Source of the DNA: an uncultured Bacilli bacterium
GTDB lineage: Bacteria > Bacillota_I > Bacilli_A > RF39 > UBA660
Length of the DNA: 64,000 nucleotides
Direction of reading: 5' to 3'
Assembly: GCA_934168005.1 (NCBI GenBank)
Contig: CAKPMN010000001.1
Location: forward strand, 2,597 to 66,596
The stretch's first letter is position 1; each line of letters begins with the position of its first letter. The notes below the pieces were generated by a model. That model did not search any database. It saw only the letters and a program-made list of their open reading frames with translations, and had not been told where the DNA came from. Made by a program: the position numbers and the translations under genes. This document shows positions 21,262 to 54,472 of the stretch, piece after piece.

Positions 21262-21292
21262 GAAGACAAATAATTAAATTTGTCTTTTTAAT
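21262..21292 (+). terminator. Rho-independent terminator after the yrrM-like gene
   Basis: AGACAAAT-aatta-ATTTGTCT followed by a T-run. Confidence 0.6.
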
Positions 21293-21559
21293 TACAAAAA
21301 ATTAAGTTTAAGATAATAAGTATAGTAATTAATGAAACATATTATGTTGAGTCATGGTTAAAAAATTATGATTATAAGAAACTAAATAATGTATTTAAAA
21401 ATGAAGAGTTTAACATCTTTATTTTTTTATTGAATGCGCTTACATTTTTAAAACATAATGTTTTAAAATTATATATCTATTTTTTAAAATTATTATAATT
21501 AATTCATACTATAATAACAGGACAATTAATATAGTACGTTTAAGAGAGAAGGATATGAT

Positions 21560-21648
21560 ATGAGAGGTATTAATAGTAACTCTAATTTTTATCGTGTTAA
21601 CAGTACAAATATCAGTACTGGTTTTTATGTTTCCTTCTTTTCTAATTA
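21560..21648 (+). CDS. Candidate 29-codon leader ORF (MRGINSNSNFYRVNSTNISTGFYVSFFSN)
   Basis: ATG 21560 lies 7 nt after the RBS-like GAGAGAAGGA. The TAA stop at 21646-21648 falls in the loop of the hairpin that sequesters the RBS of the downstream giant gene. Confidence 0.25.
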
Positions 21649-21660
21649 AAAAGAAGGAGG
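21630..21660 (+). promoter_or_regulatory. RBS-sequestering hairpin upstream of the glycine-rich giant gene
   Basis: CCTTCTTTT (21633-21641) pairs with AAAAGAAGG (21649-21657) across a 7-nt loop, and flanking T:A and U:G pairs can extend the stem. The 3' arm contains the Shine-Dalgarno AAGGAGG (21654-21660) for ATG 21667. Confidence 0.45.
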
Positions 21661-21666
21661 ATATAA

Positions 21667-24600
21667 ATGAAAAAGGGTAAAAAAGGATTTGTAGTAAGTG
21701 CGGTATTGTACCCACTACTAGTATTATTTCTAGCAATAATCATGGGACTTTTATCAATGACAGATACAAGAAAAAGAATATTAGATAAAATGAAACTAGA
21801 AATAACAGATAATATATTTGATGATGCAGCATGCTCTTGCGATACAATATTAGCAAAACTAAACTACATTATCGCAAATGGAACAGGAGGCAGTGGCGGA
21901 GATACTGGATCATATGCATATAACAAATTAACACTAAATGTAAAAACATATGAAGCATATAGTGACTTTCCAGTGGTAGGAAACATAATAGGAGATATCG
22001 CAGTATTATCAGATACACCAATAAAAAACTATTATGTATCAACAAGTGTACCAAAAAGTCCACAAGAAGGAACAGTATGGATAGTACAAGATAATACAAG
22101 TAATTATTATGTAACAAGTGACTGGAATAGAATCGGTATAAGTTATGTAATGCAATATGAAAATAGTAAATGGGTATTAAAGAAATCATATGTATACAAT
22201 GGTGAGTCTTGGACAATGCTTTATTATGTAAAACTTAGTAATAGTTATGTAGATTTAACTGCAACAGATATAAATGCAGATATCGAGACAAACTTTGATT
22301 ATACTGGAGAATTTCAAATGTATACTGCAAGGTTTTCTGGATACTATAAGATAGAATTATGGGGAGCTCAGGGCGGAGTTATCTGGAGCGGAGGTAAAGG
22401 AGCATATACATCAGGAGAGATATATTTAGATGCAGGACAAGTCCTTTATATATATGTAGGCGGAAAAGGTTCTGGACAAACAGGGGGCTGGAACGGAGGC
22501 GGAAATGGTGGTACTAATAGTGGTGATGATCGAAGATATGGTCGTGGAGGCGGTGGAGCTACTGATGTTAGACTAGTGTCTACTAGTGACAAAGCCCTTT
22601 GGAATGAAACTTCTTCCTTACTTAGTAGAATTATGGTCGCAGCTGGAGGTGGAGGCGATGCTCACAGATACTATACCCCAGATAGTGGTAACTATTATTC
22701 TAATGGTTATGGCGGAGCCGGAGGGGGACTTAAAGGTTATGATGGTTCTGTAGCTGCTTCTAAAAATTGGGGAACTAGTGGACAACAAGGAATGGGTGCT
22801 AACCAAGCAACACCAGGTTATACTTTGAGTTTATTATCTTCTACTGGTGATTTTGGCTATGGAGGAACAACTCCTGAAACTGGAGCCGGTGGAGGCGGCG
22901 GTTGGTATGGAGGCGGTGCTTCTAATATAGGTGGAGTTGGAGCTGCTGGTGGATCTAGCTATATATCAGGTCATGCAGGATCAGATTCAGTTTCTATAGC
23001 TGAAACAAATAAACAAAATGGAAATATAGTTCATAGAGGTAGTAGTCATTATGATGAAAATTACTGGTTTAGAAACACTGATATGATAGATGGTAATGGA
23101 TATAGGTGGGGAGAAGAAAGATATTCTTCAGTAGTAGGTATGCCTACAATTGATGGAAGTACAACTATGACAGGAAATACTGGTAATGGGCATGCCAAAA
23201 TAACATTAATGACAGTACAAGTAATCGAGGAAAATGAATTAAATAAATTAAGACAAGATAGTGAAAAAGTTTGGAGTTATTCATATTCCGGTAATAGTCA
23301 GACCTTAGGAAAGTATCAATTGTTTGAAGCACCAGTATCTGGAACTTATTCTATAGAAGCATGGGGAGCTCAAGGTGGAGTTATTTGGAACGGTGGAAAA
23401 GGAGCATATACTTATGGCGACATAGACCTAAAGAAAGGTGAAAAACTATATGTATATGTTGGCGGAACAGGAAATGGCTCAATTGGCGGTTGGAACGGCG
23501 GTGGCAGTAACACTAATTCTGCAACAGCTGATGATCGAAGATATGGTCGAGGCGGAGGTGGAGCTACTGATATTAGATATCAATCAACATCCAGCATAGA
23601 TAGCTGGTATGGAATAGATTCAATTAAATCACGAATCATGGTTGCGGCAGGAGGCGGTGGAGATGCCCAAAGATATTATAATCCAGATAGCGGCAACTAT
23701 TATTCTAACGGCTATGGCGGAGCAGGAGGCGGAATTACCGGATACGATGGTTCTGTAGCTGCTTCTAAGAATGGTTGGAGTACTTATGATAATAGAGGTA
23801 CAGGTGCTGGGCAAGGAATTGCTGGATATATATATAATAATATTAAAAATACAGGAGCTTTTGCTCAAGGAGCAACTTCTCCCGACACAGGTGCTGGAGG
23901 CGGCGGAGGCTGGTATGGCGGTGGTGCATCACAAATAGGTGGTGTAGGAGCAGGAGGTGGCTCTTCATATATAAGTGGTCATAATGGCTCAAATTCAATA
24001 TCTGAGGAATCAACAACTGCAGATATTTTACATACTGGAAGTAGATATCATTATAGTAATTTTTATTTTAGTAATACAAAAATGATAGATGGGAACGGTT
24101 ATGAATGGTCTACTGTTAGAGGTGCTTTAGTTAGTATGCCAACAAAAGGAAAGACTAGTACTATGACTGGAAATACAGGAAATGGTTATGCGAGAATAGC
24201 CTTAAAAGAAATTAATGAAACTTCAAGAGATAAACAAGAAGAAAGCGAATGGCATTATGAATACGCTGGTAAAACAGCTAATACAGGATCTTATCAAGAA
24301 TTTACAGCTTCTGTATCAGGTGTTTATAGATTTGAACTATGGGGAGCTCAAGGTGGAGTTATCTGGAGTGGTGGAAAAGGATCATATACATCTGGTGAAA
24401 TGTATATGAATGCTGGAGAAAAACTTTACATATATGTAGGCTCTAAAGGAATTAATACATATGGTGGCTGGAATGGCGGAGGTGATGGTGCTATTTCAAC
24501 TGGAGATGATAGAAGGAATGGTCGAGGTGGCGGAGGAGCAACTGATATAAGAATATCAAAAACTTCAAATCTAAGTATAACGAATGAATATGATAGTTTA

Positions 24601-26160
24601 ACTTCACGAATCATGGTTGCTGCAGGAGGCGGCGGAGATGCTCAGCGATATTATAATCCAGATAGTGGTACTTATTATTCTAACGGCTACGGTGGAGCCG
24701 GAGGTGGACTTAAAGGTTATGATGGATATACAAATGGTAATAAGAACTGGAATTCAAATAATTCTCAAGGAATTGGAGGTACTCAGACTTTACCAGGATA
24801 TGAGTATTCTAGTTTAACTAAAACGGCATCATTTGGAGTTGGACAAACTACTACTGGAAATGGAGGAGGCGGCGGAGGCGGCTGGTATGGCGGAGGTGCT
24901 TCTGAGATATCTGGTATTGGAGGAGCTGGCGGATCAAGCTATATACTTGGCCATAGTGGTTGTAGTTCTATAAGTAGTGACAGTAGCTATGCTAACTTAA
25001 TACACACAGGAAGTTCTTATAATGATAATAAAGAGAATTATTATTTTACAAATACACAGATGATAGATGGCAATGGTTACTCATGGGGCGATTATAAGAA
25101 AAACGCAACATCTCAACCTACGATTGATGGATCTTCTACTCAAACTGGTAAATCTGGAGATGGCTATGCTAAAATTACGTTAAAAGAAAAGAAAAATTCC
25201 TCAAGAGAGAAAAAGAATGAAACAAGTTGGCTTTATACTTATGCTGGTACAACTTCACTTTCAGGACAATATCAAGAATTTAATGTTGAAATGAGTGGAA
25301 CATATAAGATTCAATTATGGGGAGCTCAAGGTGGATCAATATGGAGTGGCGGGAAAGGTGGTTATACAGAAGGTAACATTTATTTAACAAAAGGTACTCA
25401 ATTATATATTTATGTAGGTGGAACGACTAATAATACTACTGGTGGATATAATGGTGGTGGAAATGGTGCTGTTTCAACTGGTGATGATAGAAGAACTGGT
25501 CGAGGCGGAGGTGGCTCTACTGATATCAGATTAGTATCTGGTTCGTGGGTTGATGCAAAAGGTATAAACTCACGAATTATGGTTGCAGCTGGAGGTGGCG
25601 GTGATGCTCACAGATACTATAGTCCGGATAGTGGCAACTACTATTCTAATGGCTATGGCGGCTCAGCAGGTGGACTTAAAGGTTATGATGGATATACAAA
25701 TGGTAATAAAAATTGGCATTCTAATGGACAACAAGGAATTGGAGGAACTCAATCAAAACCTGGGTATACTCTTTCTGTTACTTCAAACATTGCTTCTCTT
25801 GGTATAGGTGGAACTACTACTGGAAATGGAGCAGGAGGAGGCGGTGGATATTATGGAGGTGGAGCTTCTAATATGGGTGGTATTGGAGGAGCTGGCGGTT
25901 CAAGTTATATATCAGGACATGAAGGATGTATTGCAATTGATGCATCTGGTTCTCCTCTTGTTGATAGTTATACTACTTTGGCTGATTCAGTTCATTTATC
26001 TGGATATAAATTTACAAATACATATATGGTAGATGGAAATGGATATTTCTGGGATACTGAAAAACGTACTTTGGTTAATCAATATGATAATACAGGCACA
26101 ACTACTCAAGCAGGTCAAAGTGGTAATGGATATGCCAAGATAACATATTTAGGAGCTTAG
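21667..26160 (+). CDS. Giant membrane-anchored protein with four tandem ALK/LTK-type glycine-rich (Pfam Gly_rich PF12810-like, polyglycine-II) domains
   Basis: A 1,497-aa ORF with a strong RBS (AAGGAGG) and a signal-anchor N-terminus. Four roughly 326-334 aa units each contain WGAQGG..GGKG.YT.G...L..G..LY.YVGG, then DDRR.GRGGGG.TD.R, SRIMVAAGGGGDA.RYY.PDSG.YYSNGYGG.GGGL.GYDG, GAGGGGGWYGGGAS, GGSSYISGH, MIDGNGY.W and G..GNGYAKITL. Confidence 0.85.
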   Translation: MKKGKKGFVVSAVLYPLLVLFLAIIMGLLSMTDTRKRILDKMKLEITDNIFDDAACSCDTILAKLNYIIANGTGGSGGDTGSYAYNKLTLNVKTYEAYSDFPVVGNIIGDIAVLSDTPIKNYYVSTSVPKSPQEGTVWIVQDNTSNYYVTSDWNRIGISYVMQYENSKWVLKKSYVYNGESWTMLYYVKLSNSYVDLTATDINADIETNFDYTGEFQMYTARFSGYYKIELWGAQGGVIWSGGKGAYTSGEIYLDAGQVLYIYVGGKGSGQTGGWNGGGNGGTNSGDDRRYGRGGGGATDVRLVSTSDKALWNETSSLLSRIMVAAGGGGDAHRYYTPDSGNYYSNGYGGAGGGLKGYDGSVAASKNWGTSGQQGMGANQATPGYTLSLLSSTGDFGYGGTTPETGAGGGGGWYGGGASNIGGVGAAGGSSYISGHAGSDSVSIAETNKQNGNIVHRGSSHYDENYWFRNTDMIDGNGYRWGEERYSSVVGMPTIDGSTTMTGNTGNGHAKITLMTVQVIEENELNKLRQDSEKVWSYSYSGNSQTLGKYQLFEAPVSGTYSIEAWGAQGGVIWNGGKGAYTYGDIDLKKGEKLYVYVGGTGNGSIGGWNGGGSNTNSATADDRRYGRGGGGATDIRYQSTSSIDSWYGIDSIKSRIMVAAGGGGDAQRYYNPDSGNYYSNGYGGAGGGITGYDGSVAASKNGWSTYDNRGTGAGQGIAGYIYNNIKNTGAFAQGATSPDTGAGGGGGWYGGGASQIGGVGAGGGSSYISGHNGSNSISEESTTADILHTGSRYHYSNFYFSNTKMIDGNGYEWSTVRGALVSMPTKGKTSTMTGNTGNGYARIALKEINETSRDKQEESEWHYEYAGKTANTGSYQEFTASVSGVYRFELWGAQGGVIWSGGKGSYTSGEMYMNAGEKLYIYVGSKGINTYGGWNGGGDGAISTGDDRRNGRGGGGATDIRISKTSNLSITNEYDSLTSRIMVAAGGGGDAQRYYNPDSGTYYSNGYGGAGGGLKGYDGYTNGNKNWNSNNSQGIGGTQTLPGYEYSSLTKTASFGVGQTTTGNGGGGGGGWYGGGASEISGIGGAGGSSYILGHSGCSSISSDSSYANLIHTGSSYNDNKENYYFTNTQMIDGNGYSWGDYKKNATSQPTIDGSSTQTGKSGDGYAKITLKEKKNSSREKKNETSWLYTYAGTTSLSGQYQEFNVEMSGTYKIQLWGAQGGSIWSGGKGGYTEGNIYLTKGTQLYIYVGGTTNNTTGGYNGGGNGAVSTGDDRRTGRGGGGSTDIRLVSGSWVDAKGINSRIMVAAGGGGDAHRYYSPDSGNYYSNGYGGSAGGLKGYDGYTNGNKNWHSNGQQGIGGTQSKPGYTLSVTSNIASLGIGGTTTGNGAGGGGGYYGGGASNMGGIGGAGGSSYISGHEGCIAIDASGSPLVDSYTTLADSVHLSGYKFTNTYMVDGNGYFWDTEKRTLVNQYDNTGTTTQAGQSGNGYAKITYLGA
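22279..26157 (+). repeat. Four in-frame tandem repeat units of about 0.98-1.0 kb inside the glycine-rich gene
   Basis: The unit anchor tggggagctca[ag]gg[ct]gga (WGAQGG) recurs at about 22353, 23355, 24333 and 25312. Other segments are conserved at nucleotide level (gatgatcgaagatatggtcg[at]ggcggaggtggagctactgat), although the units have diverged in codon choice. Confidence 0.85.
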
Positions 26161-26163
26161 CCT

Positions 26164-26757
26164 ATGAAATTTAATAATAAAAAAATAATAACAGTATTAC
26201 TAGTACTTTTAATAGTATTAGTAATGCTTGCTATTATATTTAATTTTATAAAAAAAGATAATAATAAAAAAATAGATTTAGCTATTTCTACTTACAATAA
26301 AATACATACTTTATATTTGTCAGGAAATGGCATTGAATATGTTTATGATGATGCCTATAATAGAAGGTATATAGAAGAAGATAATAATAAATATTATGAA
26401 ATAAAAAATAAAGATTTATTTACAAATTTAATATCAGAGAAATCTCTTGATAAGTTACTAGATTCTTTGAATATAAAAGAAAAAGATGATAAATATTATA
26501 TAAGTGATTTTGGAAGAGGTATTTCTAATTACTATGGTACTAAATTTAAAATAAAACATAGGAGAAAAAATAAAATAGAATATATAGCTATTTCTACTTT
26601 TTGCAAAAAAGATTTTATTGTATATTACGGAGATAGATGTATGATAGATGGCTATTATGAAATAGAAAAACCATTTACTTTGGTAAAAGAAGATGGGGTT
26701 TGGAAAGTTCTAGAATATACATCAATCTTTCAATTTAGTGATCGAGAACTTAAATAA
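26164..26757 (+). CDS. Membrane-anchored protein translationally coupled to the glycine-rich gene
   Basis: Its ATG lies 3 nt after the upstream TAG stop. It has an N-terminal TM helix (KIITVLLVLLIVLVMLAIIF) followed by a Lys/Tyr/Asp-rich ectodomain. Confidence 0.5.
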   Translation: MKFNNKKIITVLLVLLIVLVMLAIIFNFIKKDNNKKIDLAISTYNKIHTLYLSGNGIEYVYDDAYNRRYIEEDNNKYYEIKNKDLFTNLISEKSLDKLLDSLNIKEKDDKYYISDFGRGISNYYGTKFKIKHRRKNKIEYIAISTFCKKDFIVYYGDRCMIDGYYEIEKPFTLVKEDGVWKVLEYTSIFQFSDRELK

Positions 26758-26786
26758 CGCAATGCGTTATTTTTGTTTTGACTATA
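26756..26786 (+). terminator. Rho-independent terminator closing the glycine-rich operon
   Basis: AACGC-aat-GCGTT followed by TTTTTGTTTT. Confidence 0.5.
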
Positions 26787-26831
26787 TTTTTTTAAAATAA
26801 TTTAGTATAATGTTTCTAAGAGGTGATATTT

Positions 26832-28106
26832 ATGTTTATTGATCAAGTTACTATGGAGTTATATGCTGGAGATGGGGGAAATGGCTGTATGGCTTTTCGA
26901 CGTGAAAAGTATATATCTATGGGAGGACCTTTTGGAGGAAATGGTGGAAAAGGATCTGATATTGTATTTGAAGTTGATGAAGGACTAAATACACTAATTG
27001 ATTTAAAATATCACCGTATTGTAAAAGGAAATAAGGGTGCAAATGGATTAGGAAAAGGCATGCATGGTGCTGGTGCTGACGATATTATAATAAAAGTTCC
27101 AGCTGGTACTATTATTACCGACCTAGATACAGGCTTAGTTATGGCTGATTTAACTAATAAAAATGATAGAGTTATAGCGGCTTATGGTGGTCGTGGTGGT
27201 AGAGGTAACATTGCTTTTGCGACTCGTAGTAATCCGGCTCCAGCATTCTGTGAAAATGGGGAACCTGGTGAAGTTAGACATGTTAAGGTTGAATTAAAAC
27301 TTCTTGCTGATGTTGGATTAGTTGGACTTCCATCTGTTGGAAAAAGTACAATTATTTCTGATATATCTGCATCTAAACCTAAAATAGCAGCATATCATTT
27401 TACAACTTTAGTTCCTAATTTAGGTGTTGCAAGAAGCAGAAGCGGAAAATCTTTTGTAGTTGCGGATATGCCTGGTTTGATTGAAGGAGCTTCTTTAGGT
27501 GAAGGATTAGGAGATCAGTTTTTAAAACATATTGAAAGAACTCGCGTAATTGCTCATGTTGTTGATATGAGTGGATATGAGGGAAGAAATCCATATGATG
27601 ATTATGTTTTAATAAATAAAGAATTAGAAGCTTTTAATCCTAAACTTCTTTTAAGACCACAGATTATTATCGCTAATAAGATGGATATTGAAGGAGCTTT
27701 GGAAAACTTAAATGAATTTTCTAAAAAAGTTGGAGATGTAAAAATATTTAAAGTGTCAGCTGCTTTAAATCAAGGATTAGAAGATGTAGTTGATTATTTA
27801 GGGGATCTACTTGATACTATTCCAAAGGAAGCTTTGATAAATGAGGAAGAGTTTGAAAGTCATGTTTTATATAAATTTAAAAGAGAAGAACCTTTCCAAA
27901 TTTATAAAGAAGGAAATACTTTTGTTGTAAGAGGAGACGAAGTTGAAAAACTTCTTCGAATGACTAAGTTCCAAACAGAAGAATCTGCAAGAAGATTTGC
28001 AAATAAGCTTCGTAAAATGGGGATAGATGATAAACTTCGTGAAATGGGTGCGGTTGATGGTGATACTATACGTATCTTAGATTTAGAATTTGAATTTAAG
28101 GAGTAA
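26832..28106 (+). CDS. obg: GTPase Obg (CgtA)
   Basis: An Obg-fold N-terminus (MELYAGDGGNGCMAFRREKY with glycine-rich repeats), a G domain (GLVGLPSVGKST, DMPGLIEGA, NKMD) and a C-terminal OCT domain. The start is ATG 26832 after AGAGGTG. Confidence 0.95.
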   Translation: MFIDQVTMELYAGDGGNGCMAFRREKYISMGGPFGGNGGKGSDIVFEVDEGLNTLIDLKYHRIVKGNKGANGLGKGMHGAGADDIIIKVPAGTIITDLDTGLVMADLTNKNDRVIAAYGGRGGRGNIAFATRSNPAPAFCENGEPGEVRHVKVELKLLADVGLVGLPSVGKSTIISDISASKPKIAAYHFTTLVPNLGVARSRSGKSFVVADMPGLIEGASLGEGLGDQFLKHIERTRVIAHVVDMSGYEGRNPYDDYVLINKELEAFNPKLLLRPQIIIANKMDIEGALENLNEFSKKVGDVKIFKVSAALNQGLEDVVDYLGDLLDTIPKEALINEEEFESHVLYKFKREEPFQIYKEGNTFVVRGDEVEKLLRMTKFQTEESARRFANKLRKMGIDDKLREMGAVDGDTIRILDLEFEFKE

Positions 28107-34090: not shown

Positions 34091-34507
34091 ATGAAAAAAA
34101 GTAAAAAGTATTTAAAAATAAGTTTTTTAGCATTTTGTTTTTCGTTAGTTAGTTTAGTAAGTGTTTCAGCAGCCGGATATAATTTTAATAATTTTACAAT
34201 CCCTAAGTATCAAAATTGGGGTGTGTTGGGCTTATTTAAAACGAGTTCTACTACAGACTATGGCACAGTTAGATTATCAAATATGAATCTAGAAGCTGTG
34301 ACATTTAGAGCTCGTTCAATGGATACAAATCAAAACTATGGTCCATTTGGTTCATCAAAAGTTGTTGATCAAGTTGGTGAAACTGTAAAAGTAAAATATA
34401 ATCAAACTTATACTGCAAGAACTTATATACAATTGCAGGCAAGAAACCATAATTGGAATTCAGCAACAAGGTCTATTTCAGGGGTATTTTACGTAGATGG
34501 AAAATAA
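34091..34507 (+). CDS. Small secreted protein (Sec signal peptide)
   Basis: The RBS GGGAGGAA and the signal peptide MKKSKKYLKISFLAFCFSLVSLVSVSAAG, with a mature part of about 110 aa that contains no Cys. Confidence 0.5.
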   Translation: MKKSKKYLKISFLAFCFSLVSLVSVSAAGYNFNNFTIPKYQNWGVLGLFKTSSTTDYGTVRLSNMNLEAVTFRARSMDTNQNYGPFGSSKVVDQVGETVKVKYNQTYTARTYIQLQARNHNWNSATRSISGVFYVDGK

Positions 34508-34574
34508 TTTTTAAGATTTATTTTAGAAGAAGATAAAAAATCTTCTTCTAAAATAACTAATTAAAGGAGGACTT

Positions 34575-35390
34575 ATGAAAGAACTTAAATATAATATTAA
34601 CTATTTATTAAGAAAAAAAGAGTTATATATTATGATTATATTCTTACTTGTTATTGTTATTGCAAATGTATATATGGTTTCCTCTGAAGCTTTATTTAGA
34701 ATGGATGATTATAAGGAAACTATTGAGACTGCTGAATATCTCCAAATATTTTCTGGGTATTCTAATTGGATATTATGTCCTATGTTTATTTTAGGAGTTC
34801 CTATTCTTAGTTCATTAGTATTTTGTGATATATCATGGACTGAAAGAAAAGGAAAAATAGATAATCTTTTATCTAATCGCTTAGATTATAAAACTAATAC
34901 TATAGTAAGATTTTTTCTTGCTATATTTGGTACTTTTTTGCTTGTTTTTTTAACATTAATGTTGGATTATTTATGTTTAGTTTATTTATTTGGAAGTGGA
35001 GCTAAGATTGATTATAGTGGAGGAGCTGCTTTTAATATTTTTACTACTATAAAATTTTTAAAAGAATTATTCTATGTTAGTCCATTTTTTCATTCTGTTG
35101 TATCTATTTTACATATATCTTTAATATTTGGATTGTTAACTGGATTAAGCTATGCACTTTCATTTTATTTAAAGCAAAAAGTATTGATTTATTTTACATC
35201 ACCAATTATATTTTTAGTTTTAGAAGTTTTACTTGGCAGTTCAATTGTTTTAAGAAATTTTTCTATATTATTACAAGTTGAGTTAAGAATTGGAAATATC
35301 TGGGCTTCATTAGGAATATATGCTATGTTATTTATTTCTTCAATTTTATTAATTGGACTTCATATAAATAAAAAGGATGTTTTATTATGA
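34575..35390 (+). CDS. ABC-2-type permease-like polytopic membrane protein
   Basis: The RBS AAAGGAGG. A 271-aa protein with about 6 TM helices. Confidence 0.45.
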   Translation: MKELKYNINYLLRKKELYIMIIFLLVIVIANVYMVSSEALFRMDDYKETIETAEYLQIFSGYSNWILCPMFILGVPILSSLVFCDISWTERKGKIDNLLSNRLDYKTNTIVRFFLAIFGTFLLVFLTLMLDYLCLVYLFGSGAKIDYSGGAAFNIFTTIKFLKELFYVSPFFHSVVSILHISLIFGLLTGLSYALSFYLKQKVLIYFTSPIIFLVLEVLLGSSIVLRNFSILLQVELRIGNIWASLGIYAMLFISSILLIGLHINKKDVLL

Positions 35391-36055
35391 AATATGTATT
35401 AAAAAAACCGGCAACATTATTATTTATGGTGATCGTTATTATTCTTGGTATATCAATTGGATATGATGTTGGAAGTATGGGACTATTATCTACTAGATTA
35501 AGTGTTATTACTGTTAGAATTCTAATACTTATATCTTTTATCTATATGGATTTTTTAGTCTTTAGAGATTTAAATAGTTCTATGGTTTTATTTAGAAATA
35601 AATCGTTATTAAAATTTTTTAAATCTGTTATAAAAATAGAAATGTTACTAGTATTTATTTTTTCATTATTATTATTTATACCAATTATTTTACTTAACTT
35701 TTCTATGTTTTTAAAAGAATTTAATTATTTTGTGCTAATGATTATTAATTTTAATGTAGTTATGACATTTTGTATATCTATAGTTAGACTTATAGATGTT
35801 GGAATTAATAAGAGATCGTTATCTTCTATAATTTTTATACTATCTTTTATAGCAATTGATTTAATAATGGATGAATTTTACTTTGATATAATCGGTTTAT
35901 CATCAATATTTATTCTTCCATTAGAATTTAATTTATTAACATACTTTTTAGTTTTATTTGTACTTATAACATCTATAATAATGATTACGTTTTTAACACT
36001 TTATGAAATATCAAGAAAGGATTATTTAATAAAAAATGAAGAAGTTAATATCTAA
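35387..36055 (+). CDS. Polytopic membrane protein (ABC-2 permease-like)
   Basis: A 222-aa protein with about 6 TM helices and a start overlapping the preceding stop. Confidence 0.45.
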   Translation: MKYVLKKPATLLFMVIVIILGISIGYDVGSMGLLSTRLSVITVRILILISFIYMDFLVFRDLNSSMVLFRNKSLLKFFKSVIKIEMLLVFIFSLLLFIPIILLNFSMFLKEFNYFVLMIINFNVVMTFCISIVRLIDVGINKRSLSSIIFILSFIAIDLIMDEFYFDIIGLSSIFILPLEFNLLTYFLVLFVLITSIIMITFLTLYEISRKDYLIKNEEVNI

Positions 36056-36710
36056 TAGAGAAATATTATTTTTTATATTTATGTTGTTTATAATAACAGC
36101 TCTTAAAAGTTCAAACTTAACTTATGGCAACTTTTTAGAAAGTTTTAAAAATGTATTATTTTTTTACAATGAAAAGACTCTATTGATAAACACCGTATCG
36201 TTGCTTCAATATTTTATTTTAATTTTAATTGTTGTAAAAAGGGCGTGTTATAGATTAACACATTTTATATCAAGATATAGAAATAGAAGAAGATATTTAT
36301 TTAAAGTTATAACTGATACATTCTTAACAAATATAATATTAACCGTTATTATGATTTTCTTACAAGGTTTTTTATTCCTATATATTAAAGGAGTTAGTTT
36401 TAATTTTGACTTTTCTTTAATTCAGATTAGTGTTAAGTTGATTTTTGAATTATTTATATCAGAACTTATTTTGATTATTTTAATTTTAATAACTAAGCAA
36501 TTAACTTATTCATATTTGATTTATTTTATTTTTACTAATATTTGCCTACATTACGCACGCGAAAAATATATTCCACTTATTTCGGTTTATTTGGACGCTA
36601 AATTTAATATTTATTTGTTTGGATTAATGTTTATATTAATAGGTATTTTATATTTTTTATATCAAAATTTAGATATAGGAGGGGAATTAGATGAAGTTGA
36701 AAGTAATTAA
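36036..36710 (+). CDS. Polytopic membrane protein (ABC-2 permease-like)
   Basis: A 224-aa protein with about 6 TM helices that overlaps both neighbours. Confidence 0.45.
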   Translation: MKKLISNREILFFIFMLFIITALKSSNLTYGNFLESFKNVLFFYNEKTLLINTVSLLQYFILILIVVKRACYRLTHFISRYRNRRRYLFKVITDTFLTNIILTVIMIFLQGFLFLYIKGVSFNFDFSLIQISVKLIFELFISELILIILILITKQLTYSYLIYFIFTNICLHYAREKYIPLISVYLDAKFNIYLFGLMFILIGILYFLYQNLDIGGELDEVESN

Positions 36711-37344
36711 TTATACTAAAATTATAAAGAATAAAGTAATTTTAGATAATGTTAACTTAGAGTTAGAAAGTGGAAATATTTATGGCTTTTTTGGAAGAAA
36801 TGGTAGTGGGAAAACTATGCTTTTTAGAGCCATAACTTCACTTATACATCCAACAGAAGGGGATGTTTTGATAGATGGAAAATCAGTTAATCATGATGAT
36901 TTTGATTTAAGTCAAGTGGGTATTCTTATAGAAGACCCTGGATTTTATCCACATTTAACTGGATTTGAAAACTTGGAGATGCTTTATACTATTAATAATA
37001 AAAAAGATTCTGATTATATAAAAAGTGTTTTAGATAGGGTTGGACTTTTAGATGCTGCCTTTAAAAAGTATAAAGAATATTCACTTGGAATGAGACAACG
37101 CCTTAGAATAGCGCAAGCATTTATGGAAAATCAAAAAATTATTATATTAGATGAACCTACAAATGGACTTGATGAAAAAGGAATAGAGATTATTTATAAT
37201 CTTATTCAAGAAGAAAAAAACAAAGGAAAGCTTATCTTGCTTGCTAGTCATAATAAGGAAGACTTAAAAATGCTTTGTGATAAGATATATTCTGTAAGAG
37301 AAGGCAAGATAGAAGAGGCATTAAAAGAGGAAGTTTCTTTATGA
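36691..37344 (+). CDS. ABC transporter ATP-binding protein
   Basis: Walker A GRNGSGKT, signature YSLGMRQRL and Walker B IIILDEPTNGLD. At 217 aa it is the size of the ATPases of ABC-2 and lantibiotic-immunity transporters. Confidence 0.85.
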   Translation: MKLKVINYTKIIKNKVILDNVNLELESGNIYGFFGRNGSGKTMLFRAITSLIHPTEGDVLIDGKSVNHDDFDLSQVGILIEDPGFYPHLTGFENLEMLYTINNKKDSDYIKSVLDRVGLLDAAFKKYKEYSLGMRQRLRIAQAFMENQKIIILDEPTNGLDEKGIEIIYNLIQEEKNKGKLILLASHNKEDLKMLCDKIYSVREGKIEEALKEEVSL

Positions 37345-38063
37345 TAAAGTATTTGAAATATATATGTCTTATTTTATGCTTTGTTTTAGTTGGAGTTTTA
37401 TTATATGAAAAATCAAGAATTAAGAAACTAGATTATGAAGAATTTTATAATAAGACAATGTATGATATAGAAAAAACACCAGCAGCTCTTTTATCATCAT
37501 ACGTTCGTGGTATAAAAGATCAATTCTATGAAGATGTTAAATCTCTTGATGATCTACTTGAACATTCAGAATATGCGGCTTTAGTTAGAATAGATGAAAA
37601 AGAAGTATATGGTGATGGAATTATAAATCATGCAACTGTTCTAAAAAATATAAAAGGATTAGAAGGAAAAGATAAAATTCAGTTTTATGATTTAGCAATT
37701 GAGACACGTCCTAACATAGCCGTTCAGTATATTGGTGGCACAACCCCTCTTAAGAAAGATAATGAATATTTTGTATTTTTAAATTCACTTAAACATCAAA
37801 ATAGAAGAGGGGCAATGATATTTTCTAGTATAGGATATGGATATTTTAAAAATGCCTCTGATACTCCTATACTTCGTGATTATAATCCAAGAGATGGTGT
37901 TCCTTATTCTTTAGATACAATCAAGAATTATGATTTTGTAACATTGATTGAAGATGATAATTGTCATTTTGAAGATGCTGTTATATTAGTTTGTTTACCA
38001 CCAAGAGATTTTACAGATTATATAAATATCAAAAAAGAGATACTTGAAAAATATAATTCTTAA
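37341..38063 (+). CDS. Membrane-anchored hypothetical protein, last gene of the ABC unit
   Basis: The N-terminal TM segment YICLILCFVLVGVLLY; the start overlaps the ATPase stop. Confidence 0.45.
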   Translation: MIKYLKYICLILCFVLVGVLLYEKSRIKKLDYEEFYNKTMYDIEKTPAALLSSYVRGIKDQFYEDVKSLDDLLEHSEYAALVRIDEKEVYGDGIINHATVLKNIKGLEGKDKIQFYDLAIETRPNIAVQYIGGTTPLKKDNEYFVFLNSLKHQNRRGAMIFSSIGYGYFKNASDTPILRDYNPRDGVPYSLDTIKNYDFVTLIEDDNCHFEDAVILVCLPPRDFTDYINIKKEILEKYNS

Positions 38064-50107: not shown

Positions 50108-50829
50108 GTATTTATGTTAGAGATAGAAAATGTTAATAAAAGTTATTTAAAACAAGAAAATGTTTTAAAAAATATAAGTTTGAGTTTTGATAAAGGATTA
50201 GTTTGTATACTTGGACAATCTGGATCAGGTAAAACTACTTTACTTAATGTACTTGGTATGCTTGATAAGGCGGAAGGTAGTATTTATGTAGATGGACTTG
50301 ATATAAATAAATTAAAAGATAAAGAGTTAGATTACTATAGAAATACTTATGTAGGATTTATATTTCAAGATTTTAATTTAATAGAAGATTTTACAGTATA
50401 TGAAAATATAGTTTTACCATTAAAATTACAAGGTAAAAAAATAGATAATGAATTAATAGATAATTATTTAAAAAGATTAGGAATATATGAATTAAGATAT
50501 AGAAAGCCTAATGAATTATCAGGAGGGGAAAGGCAGAGAGTAGCGATACTTAGAGCAGTAGTAAAAGATCCAAAAATAATATTAGCTGATGAGGTAACAG
50601 CTAATCTAGATAGTAAAACAGGATTAGAAGTAATGAACTTATTAAAAGAAATAAGTAAGGATAGATTAGTAATATTAGTAACACATAACAATGAATATGC
50701 CTCTAAATATGCGGATAGAATAATAAAAATAGAAGATGGATATGTAGATAATGATTTATTAAAGCATGAAGATAATACATATAAAACAGTTAAAAGTAAA
50801 TTGCCTTTCTTATATGCTTTTAAATTAGG
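50108..50829 (+). repeat. Direct repeat copy A (about 716 bp, ABC ATPase-domain coding region)
   Basis: Identical to 52505-53226 except for three substitutions seen by eye: gtt to att near 50131, gat to aat near 50747, and gtt to gtc near 50790. Confidence 0.85.
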
Positions 50830-52507
50830 CGCTAAATCTGTTTTAAAGCATAAATTTAGATTTATATTATCAAGTATAATTCTATCTTTATCAGTTGCTT
50901 TATTCTTATCTTTTTATAAGGTAGTTACATATGATATAGATAAAACGCATTTATCTAAATTAGATGGAGATATATTTGAGATTAAAAAAGTTAGTTATTT
51001 AAACAATGGATCTTTTATAACCAATTTTATTGATGATTATTCAGATATTGATAATGTTGTAGGTATCAGGTATGATTATTTAGATAAAAATCAAAATAGT
51101 GATTTCTATAAAATATTTAAATTGAATACATATGTTAATGATGATTTTTTTGAAGGAGAAAAAGATGAAGAAAGAAGTCCATATTATGATATTAGATTTC
51201 CAATAAAATTAGTTGTTAGTGATAATTATGATAATTTAATTGGAAGTAGAGTATTAAGTGATAATGAAATGGTTATAACAAGTTATATTGCAGACTTATT
51301 TATAAAATATGGAGTTTATAATTCAAATGGAAAACTTATTACTTTAAAAAATTACAATGAAATATTAAATCAAAAGTTTATTTTAAATGGCAAAGTATTA
51401 ACTATTAAAGGTATCATTAAATATGACACTAGCAAGTATGATTCGTTAAAGCAAATCGGTAATTATGATTCTGATTTATATAGTGATTTTTCAAAAGATA
51501 TGGAACGTTTCTATAATAATATTTATGTTTCTAAAAATTTTGTTAAAGAAAGTTATATAGATGTTGTTGATAATACAAATTATACTTACAAGTTAGATAA
51601 TAATAATATATCCATAGATAAATATGATTTATCAGTGTTTTATGATGGGGTTAATTATAAAAATGGTAAACTAAATGATAATGAAATTATTATAAACTTA
51701 TTTTCTGTTATAGATTCTGATTCTTTTAGTCAAGAATATTCTGATTTTATTGATAAAGATCCAAGTGATGATGATATTAAAAGCTTTATAATTAATTCTA
51801 TAAAAAAGTATAATGTTAGTTATAATATAGGAGATAATGTTAATATTAAAGTTTATCATGAAAGGAATTTTCCTGATGTTTTACATGATAAGATATTTAA
51901 CCAACTTAATCTAAAAGTAGCAGGATTTACTATACTTAATAATAATTATGTATCTTTAAATGTTTCAAACGCTTATAAAACTAGGCTTTTTCCTATATCT
52001 TCTATATTGGTTAAAGAAGATAAGAATTCTTTGATAAAAAAATACCCATATGGGTCTGATTATATAGTTTATTCTTATGAATTATCTAGTATTGTTAATT
52101 GTTATACGTTAATTAATAGTAGTAAAAACATATTGATTGCGATTTCTTCAGTATTTTTATTATTTTCTATATTATTATCTTATCGTTTTGTCAGTTTAAC
52201 TATTAAGGATAATAAGAAAAAAATAGGAATATTAAGATCTCTTGGTAGTGGAAATTTTGATATATTAAAAATTTTTATGGTAGAGACATTATTTTTGGTA
52301 TTATTTACATCACTATTTACTTTTATAAATATGAATATTGTGTTTAAATTTTTAATTTATCAAAATGGTGATATAGGTATTTTTAATATATATTTTTATG
52401 ATTATTTATTAATTATTTTACTTAGTAGTATAGTTTATTTTCTTTCTACTTATTTAAGCTTTTTAAAAATGCTTAAATCAAAAATTATAGAATTAATTTA
52501 TAGGTGA
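50114..52507 (+). CDS. Fused ABC transporter: N-terminal ATPase plus C-terminal FtsX/MacB-like permease with a large extracytoplasmic domain
   Basis: Walker A GQSGSGKTT, signature LSGGERQRVA and Walker B ILADEVTANLD. A TM helix, a roughly 400-aa extracytoplasmic region and C-terminal TM helices follow. Confidence 0.85.
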   Translation: MLEIENVNKSYLKQENVLKNISLSFDKGLVCILGQSGSGKTTLLNVLGMLDKAEGSIYVDGLDINKLKDKELDYYRNTYVGFIFQDFNLIEDFTVYENIVLPLKLQGKKIDNELIDNYLKRLGIYELRYRKPNELSGGERQRVAILRAVVKDPKIILADEVTANLDSKTGLEVMNLLKEISKDRLVILVTHNNEYASKYADRIIKIEDGYVDNDLLKHEDNTYKTVKSKLPFLYAFKLGAKSVLKHKFRFILSSIILSLSVALFLSFYKVVTYDIDKTHLSKLDGDIFEIKKVSYLNNGSFITNFIDDYSDIDNVVGIRYDYLDKNQNSDFYKIFKLNTYVNDDFFEGEKDEERSPYYDIRFPIKLVVSDNYDNLIGSRVLSDNEMVITSYIADLFIKYGVYNSNGKLITLKNYNEILNQKFILNGKVLTIKGIIKYDTSKYDSLKQIGNYDSDLYSDFSKDMERFYNNIYVSKNFVKESYIDVVDNTNYTYKLDNNNISIDKYDLSVFYDGVNYKNGKLNDNEIIINLFSVIDSDSFSQEYSDFIDKDPSDDDIKSFIINSIKKYNVSYNIGDNVNIKVYHERNFPDVLHDKIFNQLNLKVAGFTILNNNYVSLNVSNAYKTRLFPISSILVKEDKNSLIKKYPYGSDYIVYSYELSSIVNCYTLINSSKNILIAISSVFLLFSILLSYRFVSLTIKDNKKKIGILRSLGSGNFDILKIFMVETLFLVLFTSLFTFINMNIVFKFLIYQNGDIGIFNIYFYDYLLIILLSSIVYFLSTYLSFLKMLKSKIIELIYR

Positions 52508-53226
52508 TTTATGTTAGAGATAGAAAATATTAATAAAAGTTATTTAAAACAAGAAAATGTTTTAAAAAATATAAGTTTGAGTTTTGATAAAGGATTAGTT
52601 TGTATACTTGGACAATCTGGATCAGGTAAAACTACTTTACTTAATGTACTTGGTATGCTTGATAAGGCGGAAGGTAGTATTTATGTAGATGGACTTGATA
52701 TAAATAAATTAAAAGATAAAGAGTTAGATTACTATAGAAATACTTATGTAGGATTTATATTTCAAGATTTTAATTTAATAGAAGATTTTACAGTATATGA
52801 AAATATAGTTTTACCATTAAAATTACAAGGTAAAAAAATAGATAATGAATTAATAGATAATTATTTAAAAAGATTAGGAATATATGAATTAAGATATAGA
52901 AAGCCTAATGAATTATCAGGAGGGGAAAGGCAGAGAGTAGCGATACTTAGAGCAGTAGTAAAAGATCCAAAAATAATATTAGCTGATGAGGTAACAGCTA
53001 ATCTAGATAGTAAAACAGGATTAGAAGTAATGAACTTATTAAAAGAAATAAGTAAGGATAGATTAGTAATATTAGTAACACATAACAATGAATATGCCTC
53101 TAAATATGCGGATAGAATAATAAAAATAGAAGATGGATATGTAAATAATGATTTATTAAAGCATGAAGATAATACATATAAAACAGTCAAAAGTAAATTG
53201 CCTTTCTTATATGCTTTTAAATTAGG
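52505..53226 (+). repeat. Direct repeat copy B (about 716 bp)
   Basis: See copy A. Identity ends after the codons for ...LYAFKLG. Confidence 0.85.
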
Positions 53227-54472
53227 AATTAAAATGTTTTTATCAAAATTTAAATTATATTTTTCCTTTACTTTTTTGTTTGTATTTTGTCTTTTACTTA
53301 TGAATGCCACTTTAGCAGTTATTAATTTTAATAAATATGATCAGATGTTTTATTCTTCTAAAAGTCCTTATTTAATGAAGAGAGTAGATAAATACAATAA
53401 TTACCTTCCAATCAGTTATTCTAATAAATATAACGTTTTATATACGAATGGTGTCGATAATATAGTTGTTATGAATGGATTTAAATATGATTATATTGGG
53501 ACTTATCCAGAAAATATAAATGAAGTAATGGTATCTAAAAGTTTAGTTGGTAAAAATGTTCTTCCTTTAGAAAATATAAAAGTAACTGGTGTTGTGCTAG
53601 ATAATTTGGATAATATTTATGTATTAGATGGACTTGTTCCAAGTTTAAAAAGTTATAAAGTAGATGGTTTAATAGAGTCAAATAAATACATTTTTAAACT
53701 AAATAAAAAGATAATAAGTGATATTGATATAGGAAGCTACTATATTAAAGATGGAGTAAAAGTTAAACTTAATAATAATGAAGCTATAATTAGTAATAGT
53801 ATAGAAAATGCAGAAGAAATGATTGGAAAAACAATATCTCTTTATGTGTATAAAGAATTAGATGTCTATTATTCTGGTATAGATAGAACACCAGACAAAG
53901 TGTTTAATGATATTAAAATAGTTGGAGTAGGAGATAATAATATATTTAGCAGTGATTTACTTAAGGATTACTATAAATATACTTACACTATAGATGGCAT
54001 TTATTTAAATAATAAAACTGATGTGTATGATTTTTATGATAAAGGTTATATTTCTTTAGAAAATTATGATAAGAATTTAGAATTATTTAAAAATATTGAA
54101 GATATTAAATTAGCTACTATAGCGATTTTTATAGTATTAACTTTGGTTTTGTTTGGACTTATTGTTTATTTTGTTCCATATATTATTAGAACCAATAAAA
54201 AGAATATAGCTATTTTAAAGAGTTTAGGTACAAGTAACGCTGATATTAATAAAATTTTGTTTGCGGAATTATTTGTGTTTTGTTTGAATATAGCTTTATT
54301 TAGTTATTTATTATTTAAATTAAGTTTATATTTATTCAAGTTAAAAAATAATTTTATATATTTATCTAATAGTTATTATATTATTTTTATTACTTTAATT
54401 TTAATATTAATTTTAGTTAGAATATTACTATTAAAATATGAAAAGATGAGTATAAGAAGTTTATTAGATTAG
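52511..54472 (+). CDS. Second fused ABC ATPase/FtsX-like permease, paralog of the preceding gene
   Basis: Its first roughly 238 codons are virtually identical to the upstream gene; the remaining permease part has diverged. Confidence 0.85.
   Translation: MLEIENINKSYLKQENVLKNISLSFDKGLVCILGQSGSGKTTLLNVLGMLDKAEGSIYVDGLDINKLKDKELDYYRNTYVGFIFQDFNLIEDFTVYENIVLPLKLQGKKIDNELIDNYLKRLGIYELRYRKPNELSGGERQRVAILRAVVKDPKIILADEVTANLDSKTGLEVMNLLKEISKDRLVILVTHNNEYASKYADRIIKIEDGYVNNDLLKHEDNTYKTVKSKLPFLYAFKLGIKMFLSKFKLYFSFTFLFVFCLLLMNATLAVINFNKYDQMFYSSKSPYLMKRVDKYNNYLPISYSNKYNVLYTNGVDNIVVMNGFKYDYIGTYPENINEVMVSKSLVGKNVLPLENIKVTGVVLDNLDNIYVLDGLVPSLKSYKVDGLIESNKYIFKLNKKIISDIDIGSYYIKDGVKVKLNNNEAIISNSIENAEEMIGKTISLYVYKELDVYYSGIDRTPDKVFNDIKIVGVGDNNIFSSDLLKDYYKYTYTIDGIYLNNKTDVYDFYDKGYISLENYDKNLELFKNIEDIKLATIAIFIVLTLVLFGLIVYFVPYIIRTNKKNIAILKSLGTSNADINKILFAELFVFCLNIALFSYLLFKLSLYLFKLKNNFIYLSNSYYIIFITLILILILVRILLLKYEKMSIRSLLD

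Follow-up and report, generated by a model that had tools for sequence, protein, structure and literature searches.

The structure of the glycine-rich ligand-binding domain of the animal receptors ALK and LTK, a fold regarded as unusual, dates only from 2021. The TG region of these receptors (human ALK in PDB entries 7LRZ, 7LS0 and 7N00, LTK in 7NX1 and the C. elegans ALK homologue SCD-2 in 7LIR) combines TNF-like and glycine-rich parts and is covered by Pfam family PF12810. The same fold and family are found in a protein of an uncultured Bacilli bacterium (GTDB lineage RF39; UBA660), encoded on the 64,000-nucleotide stretch of contig CAKPMN010000001.1 that was analysed here (hereafter the window). 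The gene, at 21667..26160 of the window, carries four such units in tandem behind a conserved N-terminal head, and we tentatively read its product as a surface-tethered adhesin.

In the literature searched, a few phage fibre proteins are the only functionally described relatives outside animals. Cyanophage Pam3 gp24 (7YPX/7YFW), the 'tail wing brush' gp33 of mycobacteriophage Bxb1 (9D93) and gp38 of Salmonella phage S16 (6F45) are receptor-binding fibre tips in which TNF-like domains, polyglycine-rich domains or both occur. ALK, S16 gp38, Pam3 and Bxb1 gp33 are grouped as glycine-rich PPII bundles in a recent survey (PMC13243192). For Pam3 gp24 a receptor-binding role is documented, and its authors place receptor recognition in the hypervariable distal tip (PMC9608196). 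No study of a member from cellular bacteria came up in literature searches for PF12810 and for ALK-like glycine-rich domains in bacteria. A preliminary description of this locus, made from the sequence alone, had called bacterial members functionally uncharacterised; this stands for cellular members but not for viral ones, given the receptor binding of Pam3 gp24.

Modular type IV pilins provide another comparison. In Streptococcus sanguinis, PilB carries a vWA module and PilC a lectin module, and PF12810 is not among the frequent modular-pilin architectures quoted from a survey of such pilins (PMC8179133).

Domain architecture and fold

The main gene opens with ATG and is read in one uninterrupted frame of 1,497 amino acids (aa). 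Its parts, including the four glycine-rich domain (GRD) units, are as follows.

21667..26160, + strand: main gene product, an N-terminal head and a beta module followed by four TNF-like plus glycine-rich (ALK/LTK-type) units
22264..23265, + strand: GRD unit 1, aa 200-533, 334 aa, by self-alignment and PF12810; included in the structural model
23266..24243, + strand: GRD unit 2, aa 534-859, 326 aa, by self-alignment and PF12810
24244..25221, + strand: GRD unit 3, aa 860-1185, 326 aa, by self-alignment and PF12810
25222..26157, + strand: GRD unit 4, aa 1186-1497, 312 aa, a position-specific terminal unit ending in ...GYAKITYLGA

PF12810 (ALK_LTK_GRD) matches the protein at E 1.7e-155 and 516.5 bits (gathering cut-off 24.5) in four stretches, the best of which spans model positions 7-243 of 243, while no other family in Pfam or NCBIfam matched. 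The motifs WGAQGG, DDRR, SRIMVAAGGGGDA, GGSSYI, DGNGY and GNG[HY]A/GDGYA occur four times each, at a spacing of about 322-335 aa. Glycine makes up 22.8% of aa 211-1497 and 6.7% of aa 1-210 (20.6% of the whole protein). The preliminary description had given the same reading frame, to the base, and an ordered motif series in every unit, and all the motifs checked do recur in each of the four; the PF12810 membership that it proposed likewise holds for every unit. Its unit size of about 326-334 aa fits units 1-3 but not the shorter unit 4. The unit borders, which it had left to a self-comparison, fall at aa 200, 534, 860 and 1186 in the self-alignment.

With a single unit as query, phmmer found no match among PDB sequences up to E 1, and aa 1-208 gave only noise against the same set. 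A profile built from 19 units of this protein and its relatives did retrieve the C. elegans ALK homologue SCD-2 (7LIR) by sequence alone, at E 3.5e-4. The AlphaFold2 model of aa 1-533, made with 45 family sequences, has a mean pLDDT of 81.9 and a pTM of 0.79, with values mostly above 90 in the unit. When this model was compared with the PDB using Foldseek, the 21 best matches were all ALK or LTK ectodomains (E 4.8e-8 to 4.3e-5). These searches show that each unit is a TNF-like beta-sandwich plus a glycine-rich domain, homologous to the ligand-binding region of ALK and LTK, much as the preliminary description had proposed. The glycine runs are modelled with high confidence, receive no alpha or beta assignment and align with the ALK GRD; from this match we infer a polyglycine-II lattice in the units.

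The architecture around the domain differs from that of the receptors. The bacterial protein has four tandem copies and ALK/LTK one, its anchor is N-terminal where theirs is C-terminal, and it lacks kinase, MAM, LDLa and EGF-like domains (the Pfam scan returned PF12810 alone). It shares a domain with ALK and is not a member of the receptor family. To our knowledge, ALKAL cytokine ligands would not be expected in bacteria.

Integrity of the repeat array

Short-read metagenome assemblies are error-prone at repeat arrays, and two database relatives (P0005 and P0010) are called from Met31, so that 5' disruptions or miscalls do occur in this family. We nevertheless give practically no credence to the four-unit array being an assembly artefact or a pseudogene. 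The frame is intact, and in self-alignment the units share 53-61% identity as protein and only 62-65% as DNA, a divergence which argues that the array is old and did not arise in short-read assembly. Several independent assemblies contain the identical 1,497-aa protein (P0129) or close variants of it (97-99.9% identity), and an allele of 85.8% identity repeats the four-unit layout at this locus. One public contig matches the window at 99.9% identity across 24.5 kb. These results speak against the artefacts and frameshifts that the preliminary description had named as a way in which its claim could fail.

Codons 2-6 (window 21670-21687) hold runs of A5 and A6 (AAAAAGGGTAAAAAAGGA). Within the group formed by P0005, P0010 and P0013, the first two start at Met31 and one relative has an altered start, MTKGKKGC; such starts could reflect 5' truncation at contig ends, sequencing error or slippage.

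The G+C content of the main gene is 38-40%, against about 25% in the surroundings. This excess probably stems from the GGN codons of a protein with 20.6% glycine. A horizontal-transfer island was considered on the basis of the G+C content and rejected, as the excess is likely compositional and the locus is syntenic in relatives.

Phage relatives of the fold

After ALK and LTK, the next-best structural matches are phage fibre proteins. Against PHROGs, a unit matches five families of unknown function (E 2e-36 to 2e-5), and 91 loci in IMG/VR carry the domain. One homologue, gp21 of the C. difficile myophages phiCDHM11, phiCDHM13 and phiCDHM14, is encoded directly after the tail fibre/baseplate genes and before the lysis genes, and by this gene order the Clostridium phage homologue occupies a receptor-binding gene slot.

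The main gene could accordingly be imagined as phage-derived hardware, that is, the tail fibre of a prophage or tailocin with its assembly chaperone, and not a cellular surface protein. Both the fold and the beta module have phage relatives, the latter through a weak DUF2793 match, and a fibre gene followed by a small gene is reminiscent of Pam3 gp24-gp25. However, the window is core chromosome (ruvX, yceG, obg, truB, an L10 leader and rpoB/rpoC, with G+C of about 25%), and the neighbours of the gene, which also include a methyltransferase gene, are all housekeeping genes, at this locus as at the paralogous ones. Fibres lack an N-terminal membrane helix, which this protein has. The small downstream gene encodes a membrane-anchored, NTF2-like protein which is not Tfa-like and matches no PHROG, and the raised G+C is most likely due to glycine. 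A phage origin of this kind is very improbable, and the genomic context already largely refutes it.

A multi-copy, variable family

Cassettes of this type are found several times per genome. In a Hadza gut metagenome, NODE_621 (coverage 14.8) holds the orthologue and a three-unit paralogue, while NODE_185 (coverage 15.5) holds a third, four-unit paralogue; the two coverages match. In another sample, two cassettes lie on one 137-kb contig. Judged from these contigs, at least three such cassettes are present in one genome. No second paralogue was found inside the 64-kb window.

The closest database relatives are almost identical in the first ~200 residues and carry arrays of 3, 4, 5 or 6 units, which are 44-55% identical where alignments reach into them. 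When the window is compared with one paralogous locus (L004), similarity begins abruptly at the ribosome-binding site, and DNA identity is ~92% for the first 190 codons and ~65% thereafter. Over those 190 codons the paralogues differ from the window gene by 19-34 synonymous and 2-3 non-synonymous changes, which indicates that the head is under strong purifying selection and has not merely undergone recent conversion. Two units of one protein resemble each other more closely (57-69% identity) than units of different paralogues do (42-54%). The last unit departs from this in its C-terminal part, which is 51-54% identical to the last units of paralogues and 40-47% identical to the internal units of its own protein, and the ending ...ITYLG[A/S/V] recurs among family members.

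The gene is present at the same locus in related genomes, a point which the preliminary description had left to be checked. The 85.8%-identical, four-unit allele mentioned above (P0002) lies between yceG with the yrrM-like methyltransferase gene and obg in another metagenome-assembled genome (MAG), and in a related species a six-unit version follows yceG and the methyltransferase gene. The differences of P0002 cluster at unit positions ~83-95, 134-177 and 186-207, between the glycine runs, with four differences in the head.

This organisation may be compared with the Vlp, Vsp and Vsa lipoproteins of Mycoplasma, with which it shares several loci per genome and a near-invariant N-terminus followed by a divergent, length-variable repeat body. 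Unlike them, the present family has no lipobox, its units are folded domains of ~330 aa in place of short repeats, and no signs of an on/off switch were found. Phase variation was looked for as long homopolymers and as convincing inverted repeats near the promoter; neither is present, the only runs being the A5/A6 in codons 2-6, and on/off phase variation was rejected on these grounds.

The conserved head and the prepilin question

Two features make up the conserved part ahead of the units.

21667..21825, + strand: head signature, aa 1-53, with basic MKKGKKG, G7-F8, a hydrophobic helix at ~aa 8-30 and a juxtamembrane helix RKRILDKMKLEI
21919..22266, + strand: conserved beta-rich module, aa 85-200 (YYVS..P..G.VWIVQ....Y......IG.SYVMQY....W.LK..YVYN..W), with strands in the model (block-mean pLDDT ~74-92) and no Pfam family

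At the N-terminus a basic stretch is followed by hydrophobic residues at ~aa 7-30 (19-residue mean hydropathy up to 2.6), and the model has a single N-terminal helix at aa 11-44. No LPXTG motif was found in the 1,497-aa protein, and its first cysteine is residue 56, so there is no N-terminal lipobox cysteine. What the analyses show is one hydrophobic helix, at the N-terminus and basic on its cytoplasmic side, as the only anchoring signal. The preliminary description had named a signal anchor, and the order of basic and hydrophobic residues bears this out; the segment is not a generic anchor, however, but a head that is strongly conserved and arranged like a prepilin. Across divergent proteins, residues 1-53 give a gap-free alignment, with K6, G7, F8, Y15, F21, K36, D40 and K43 invariant, giving the signature KGF-x6-Y-x5-F-x14-K-x3-D-x2-K. 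A profile of the head segment retrieved 382 proteins, of which the best matches are mostly stand-alone proteins of 53-95 aa, and one of these, with 58 aa, has index entries in over 4,700 blocks of the collection. Head peptides had no match in a scan of GTDB genomes.

For the beta module, Pfam gives a weak match to DUF2793 (E 0.18), a family which we take to be associated with phage tail fibres. Among 1.84 billion proteins it has 100 representatives at E<=1e-3. Its carriers comprise prepilin-type GRD proteins, proteins with the head described here and unrelated non-GRD cargo (P0312, P0315), and proteins of ~250 aa without a membrane helix. PHROGs and Pfam searches on the other carriers yielded only PF12810, PF07963 and DUF2793 as informative matches.

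Two observations on the carriers may be added. Three of the short proteins (P0322, P0326 and P0332, ~250-275 aa) have the beta module at their head; they lack a membrane helix and match nothing in Pfam or PHROGs. DUF2793 is matched by a giant protein with nine beta-module copies, a hint that the stalk module, too, is of phage-fibre type.

The head has the layout of a class III signal, in which a short basic leader ending in Gly (MKKGKKG, continued by FVVSAVLYPLLVLFLAIIMGLLSM) precedes ~20 hydrophobic residues. This raises the possibility that the protein is a modular type 4 filament subunit. The head would then be a class III signal and alpha-1 helix in the style of GspK and ComGG, which lack the glutamate at position 5 (E5); a prepilin peptidase would cut after G7, a type 4 pilus or Com-like pseudopilus would bear the protein at its tip, the GRD units would be a grafted adhesin and the paralogues interchangeable tips. 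We take this reading, the main rival of the adhesin, seriously, while considering it doubtful.

Several findings agree with it. Beyond the basic leader and the G7-F8 junction come ~22 hydrophobic residues and a helix that continues to aa 44. In distant GRD relatives with the same beta module and 2-3 units, a pilin-like domain goes with a genuine GFTL[IV]E motif (PF07963), which a pattern count finds in 24 of the 120 best matches. A genome with the orthologue encodes a canonical modular prepilin of 379 aa, MKKGFTLVELL.... In one very prevalent species, a canonical 130-aa pilin gene (MNKKGFTLIELL) begins 15 nt past a stand-alone head mini-gene, and a Flp-like (KGQTLVEY) gene comes next. The head also carries non-GRD cargo in P0312 and P0315, as in the 'carrier plus module' pilins quoted from PMC8179133, and its near-absolute conservation among paralogues would suit an assembly interface.

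Other findings point away from it. Position +5 is Ala, not Glu, and the class consensus around this position is small or polar. The models Pfam N_methyl (PF07963), NCBIfam IV_pilin_GFxxxE/TIGR02532, ComGC-GG and GspG-K gave no match up to E 10 for this N-terminus and five relatives of its class, whereas a canonical relative (P0023) matches N_methyl (3.3e-7), IV_pilin_GFxxxE (3.9e-7) and ComGC (8.8e-9). The nearest matches for the head and the five relatives were DUF7360/DUF2793 at E 0.1-0.2 and, for one relative, the archaeal UpsA pilin at E 0.022. With hhalign, the head class reaches just 23% probability against canonical prepilin N-termini. The tip subunits GspK and ComGG are known exceptions that lack E5, so its absence here counts more against the protein being a pilin than against its working like one. 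No pilin globular domain follows the helix, and neither the window nor the 10-kb surroundings of the family members examined showed a pilus ATPase, platform or peptidase gene. At four loci with three distinct mini-proteins, the constant upstream neighbour of the stand-alone head gene is a PASTA plus polysaccharide-deacetylase gene, and a pilin gene is adjacent at only one of the four.

Set beside the modular pilins, the protein shares the plan of a short conserved N-terminal carrier with a bulky binding module and the reuse of the carrier with different cargo, and relatives of the protein are true PF07963 plus PF12810 modular pilins. It differs in the lack of E5, of any pilin hidden Markov model match, of a pilin globular module and of pilus genes nearby.

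Some related genes were noted alongside. Stand-alone head proteins of 55-58 aa (KGFA.TS..Y...LF...KK..DK) are encoded at L008/L009/L010 10001-10869, L011/L012 10001-10174 and L172 8001-8168, immediately 3' of the PASTA plus polysaccharide-deacetylase gene. Canonical prepilin-type proteins (379-407 aa) lie among housekeeping genes in related genomes, at L002 16626-17849 and L007 17931-19070, and one of these large prepilins has a cysteine-rich C-terminal part with a weak TSP1_spondin match. Related lineages seem rich in orphan modular pilins.

The partner gene

A second gene follows the main gene closely.

26164..26757, + strand: partner gene, 197 aa, starting four bases past the main stop, with an AGGAG Shine-Dalgarno (SD) sequence within the last codons of the main gene

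Its product combines a membrane helix at the N-terminus with a conserved ectodomain, in which two cysteines are invariant. The model (pLDDT 84.6) shows a long helix at aa 5-53 and then an alpha+beta domain of the NTF2/cystatin type. A homologue lies directly downstream of every family member examined, and the 44 known proteins of this lineage-restricted family share 42-99% identity. Searches of Pfam, NCBIfam and PHROGs found no family match. The best structural match is IseA, a cell-wall hydrolase inhibitor, and the partner may be likened to bitopic NTF2-like proteins such as B. subtilis IseA/YoeB (an inhibitor of DL-endopeptidases, 8WT4) and the VirB8-type assembly factors TraM, DotI and TrwG; it differs from them in matching no sequence family and in being confined to 44 close relatives. 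The NTF2-like fold and the lack of a PHROG match rule out a Tfa-type fibre chaperone.

The likeness to IseA bears on a reading in which the main protein is structural or protective, an S-layer-like coat or wall spacer with the glycine lattices as its rigid bricks, whose variability would reflect escape from phage or antibodies and not choice of ligand. Many copies per genome and strain-level hypervariability are typical of exposed coats too, and the stand-alone head genes adjoin a wall-related PASTA plus polysaccharide-deacetylase gene. Nonetheless, Pfam finds no SLH, CWB2, LysM or other wall-binding domain in the 1,497-aa protein, the characterised relatives of the fold (ALK/LTK, Pam3 gp24) all bind ligands or receptors, and the variation sits in loops and is not spread across lattice contacts. 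We regard such a coat as improbable.

Leader and transcription unit

The following elements flank the two genes.

21265..21284, + strand: weak hairpin and T-run just 3' of the yrrM-like O-methyltransferase gene, GACAAAT-loop-ATTTGTC then TTTTT, read from the sequence
21544..21553, + strand: SD-like GAGAGAAGGA serving a small upstream open reading frame (ORF); the string GAGAGAAGGATAT also precedes the small ORF at the paralogous locus L004
21560..21649, + strand: upstream ORF of 29 codons (MRGINSNSNFYRVNSTNISTGFYVSFFSN, then stop), ending 2 nt short of the main SD
21601..21620, + strand: 6-bp hairpin and T-run within the upstream ORF, terminator-like or attenuator-like; an equivalent hairpin is present in the L004 fold
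21630..21661, + strand: predicted pairing of an anti-SD TTTCCTTCTTTTCT (21630-21643) with the main SD AGAAGGAGGA (21652-21661)
26752..26772, + strand: terminator-like hairpin of 9 bp and T-run, 3' of the partner gene, closing the unit; the only convincing one

The minimum-free-energy fold of the 130-nt leader pairs the anti-SD with the main SD. The L004 locus has the same layout (TCCTTC ... AAGGAGGA), with a 28-codon ORF of unrelated sequence at the equivalent position. The upstream ORF is possibly a leader peptide, and the layout suggests translational unmasking of the main start, or attenuation. The hairpin at 21265..21284, which the hairpin scan missed because it has too few G-C pairs, possibly terminates the upstream operon. 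A promoter-like site for obg (TTGACT..TATAAT) lies after the 26752..26772 hairpin. The preliminary description had given the main gene a terminator-bounded transcription unit of its own; this has to be revised, since the unit also includes the 29-codon upstream ORF and the 197-aa partner, with the terminator-like hairpin after the latter.

Divergent HTH_3/XRE-type regulator genes (67-73 aa) precede three paralogous cassettes, at L004 9521-9742 (- strand), L006 9681-9884 (- strand) and L007 9645-9851 (- strand). By the present cassette, tblastn for such a gene was negative in the 406-nt upstream gap, and none was found in the window.

Organism and neighbouring genes

RpoB is 83% identical to that of the nearest species representatives, which are MAGs of uncultured gut bacteria that bear the labels Bacilli, Tenericutes or Mycoplasmatota. 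Of genes for a cell wall, the window has MurG, MurB and LytR-CpsA-Psr, and related contigs have a penicillin-binding protein (PBP) and FemAB.

Elsewhere in the window, consecutive + strand ORFs at 34091-38063 (138, 271, 222, 224, 217 and 240 aa) resemble an uncharacterised transporter-like operon; their only Pfam match is an ABC-transporter ATPase at 36691-37344. Two adjacent paralogues at 50114-54472 (797 and 653 aa) have an ABC ATPase fused to a C-terminal FtsX-like permease, in the manner of MacB. The repeat finder grouped a stretch of obg (26823-28106) at 26860-26886, YAGDGGNG, with YVGG.GNG of the main gene. The N-terminal domain of Obg has a glycine-rich type-II-helix fold, and two unrelated polyglycine-type folds may thus lie ~700 bp apart, probably by coincidence.

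Interpretation

The explanation that we put first, with a little less than even confidence, is that the main gene encodes an outward-facing, N-terminally tethered, multivalent and variable receptor-binding adhesin, belonging to a multi-copy, rapidly diversifying family of uncultured, cell-walled human-gut Bacilli. The accessory surface or ligand-binding role suggested in the preliminary description remains the best reading of the sequences and models. The Sec pathway would insert the head with its N-terminus inside and its C-terminus outside. The beta module and a chain of 3-6 rigid units would form a stalk that crosses the Gram-positive wall and exposes the units. Variable loops at the tips of the glycine lattice may then bind an external glycan or protein on host, food or other microbes, and the same binding mode has been proposed for the Pam3 fibre tip (PMC9608196). 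The partner may dock to the protein or aid its assembly at the membrane, either by pairing its own long N-terminal helix with that of the head or through the last, position-specific unit, which co-varies with the partner. Translation of the upstream ORF would free the occluded ribosome-binding site.

Several points weigh against this explanation. The TM-scores to ALK and LTK are just 0.28-0.40, with a superposable core of ~180 residues, from which it follows that loops and insertions differ substantially from those of the receptors. The length of the stalk and its spanning of the wall are estimates. Finally, a plain anchor would not be expected to keep 190 residues near-invariant, to exist as a free protein of ~58 aa or to be shared with unrelated cargo; near-invariance, stand-alone form and other cargo point to a conserved interacting machinery that the adhesin reading leaves unnamed.

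A wider proposal would account for the head directly, and we offer it as speculative and, on balance, unlikely. The ~200-aa head (signature helix, CxC segment and beta module) would be an undescribed carrier module of uncultured gut Bacilli, either a divergent E5-less tip subunit of a type 4 filament or the handle of a display machinery of another kind. It would occur in a free ~58-aa form and carry interchangeable receptor-binding cargo of phage type, so that each genome would hold a repertoire of tips (at least three GRD cassettes, with 3-6 units), each with an NTF2-like, VirB8-style assembly partner. The proposal extends to a bacterial or phage source of the ALK/LTK ectodomain. If it were true, bacterial and phage tandem TG modules, whose structure-based identity to human ALK reaches 30% at most, would be candidate sources of the metazoan ALK/LTK ligand-binding domain.

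Significance

The domain family and its fold were known beforehand, and a connection of phage fibres with ALK has been published. The new findings are that the units stand in a tandem array behind a head which is conserved and reused, that the genes are multi-copy and hypervariable, and that there are a leader ORF and a dedicated NTF2-like partner. The locus shows cellular bacteria from the human gut using the ALK/LTK module in tandem arrays set on a conserved handle; each genome has several hypervariable copies, and a membrane partner dedicated to them is always present. This offers a tractable bacterial system in which to ask what polyglycine-II lattices bind and how loop tips set specificity. 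With links in sequence and structure that join bacteria, phages and animals, phylogeny could become a test of where the ALK/LTK ectodomain came from. Should the head be a new type 4 filament tip subunit, the concept of the modular pilin would extend to a class missed by current pilin models. For the organisms themselves, a strain-variable surface family of this kind may govern adhesion, or interactions with phages and the immune system, in a prevalent uncultured gut lineage.

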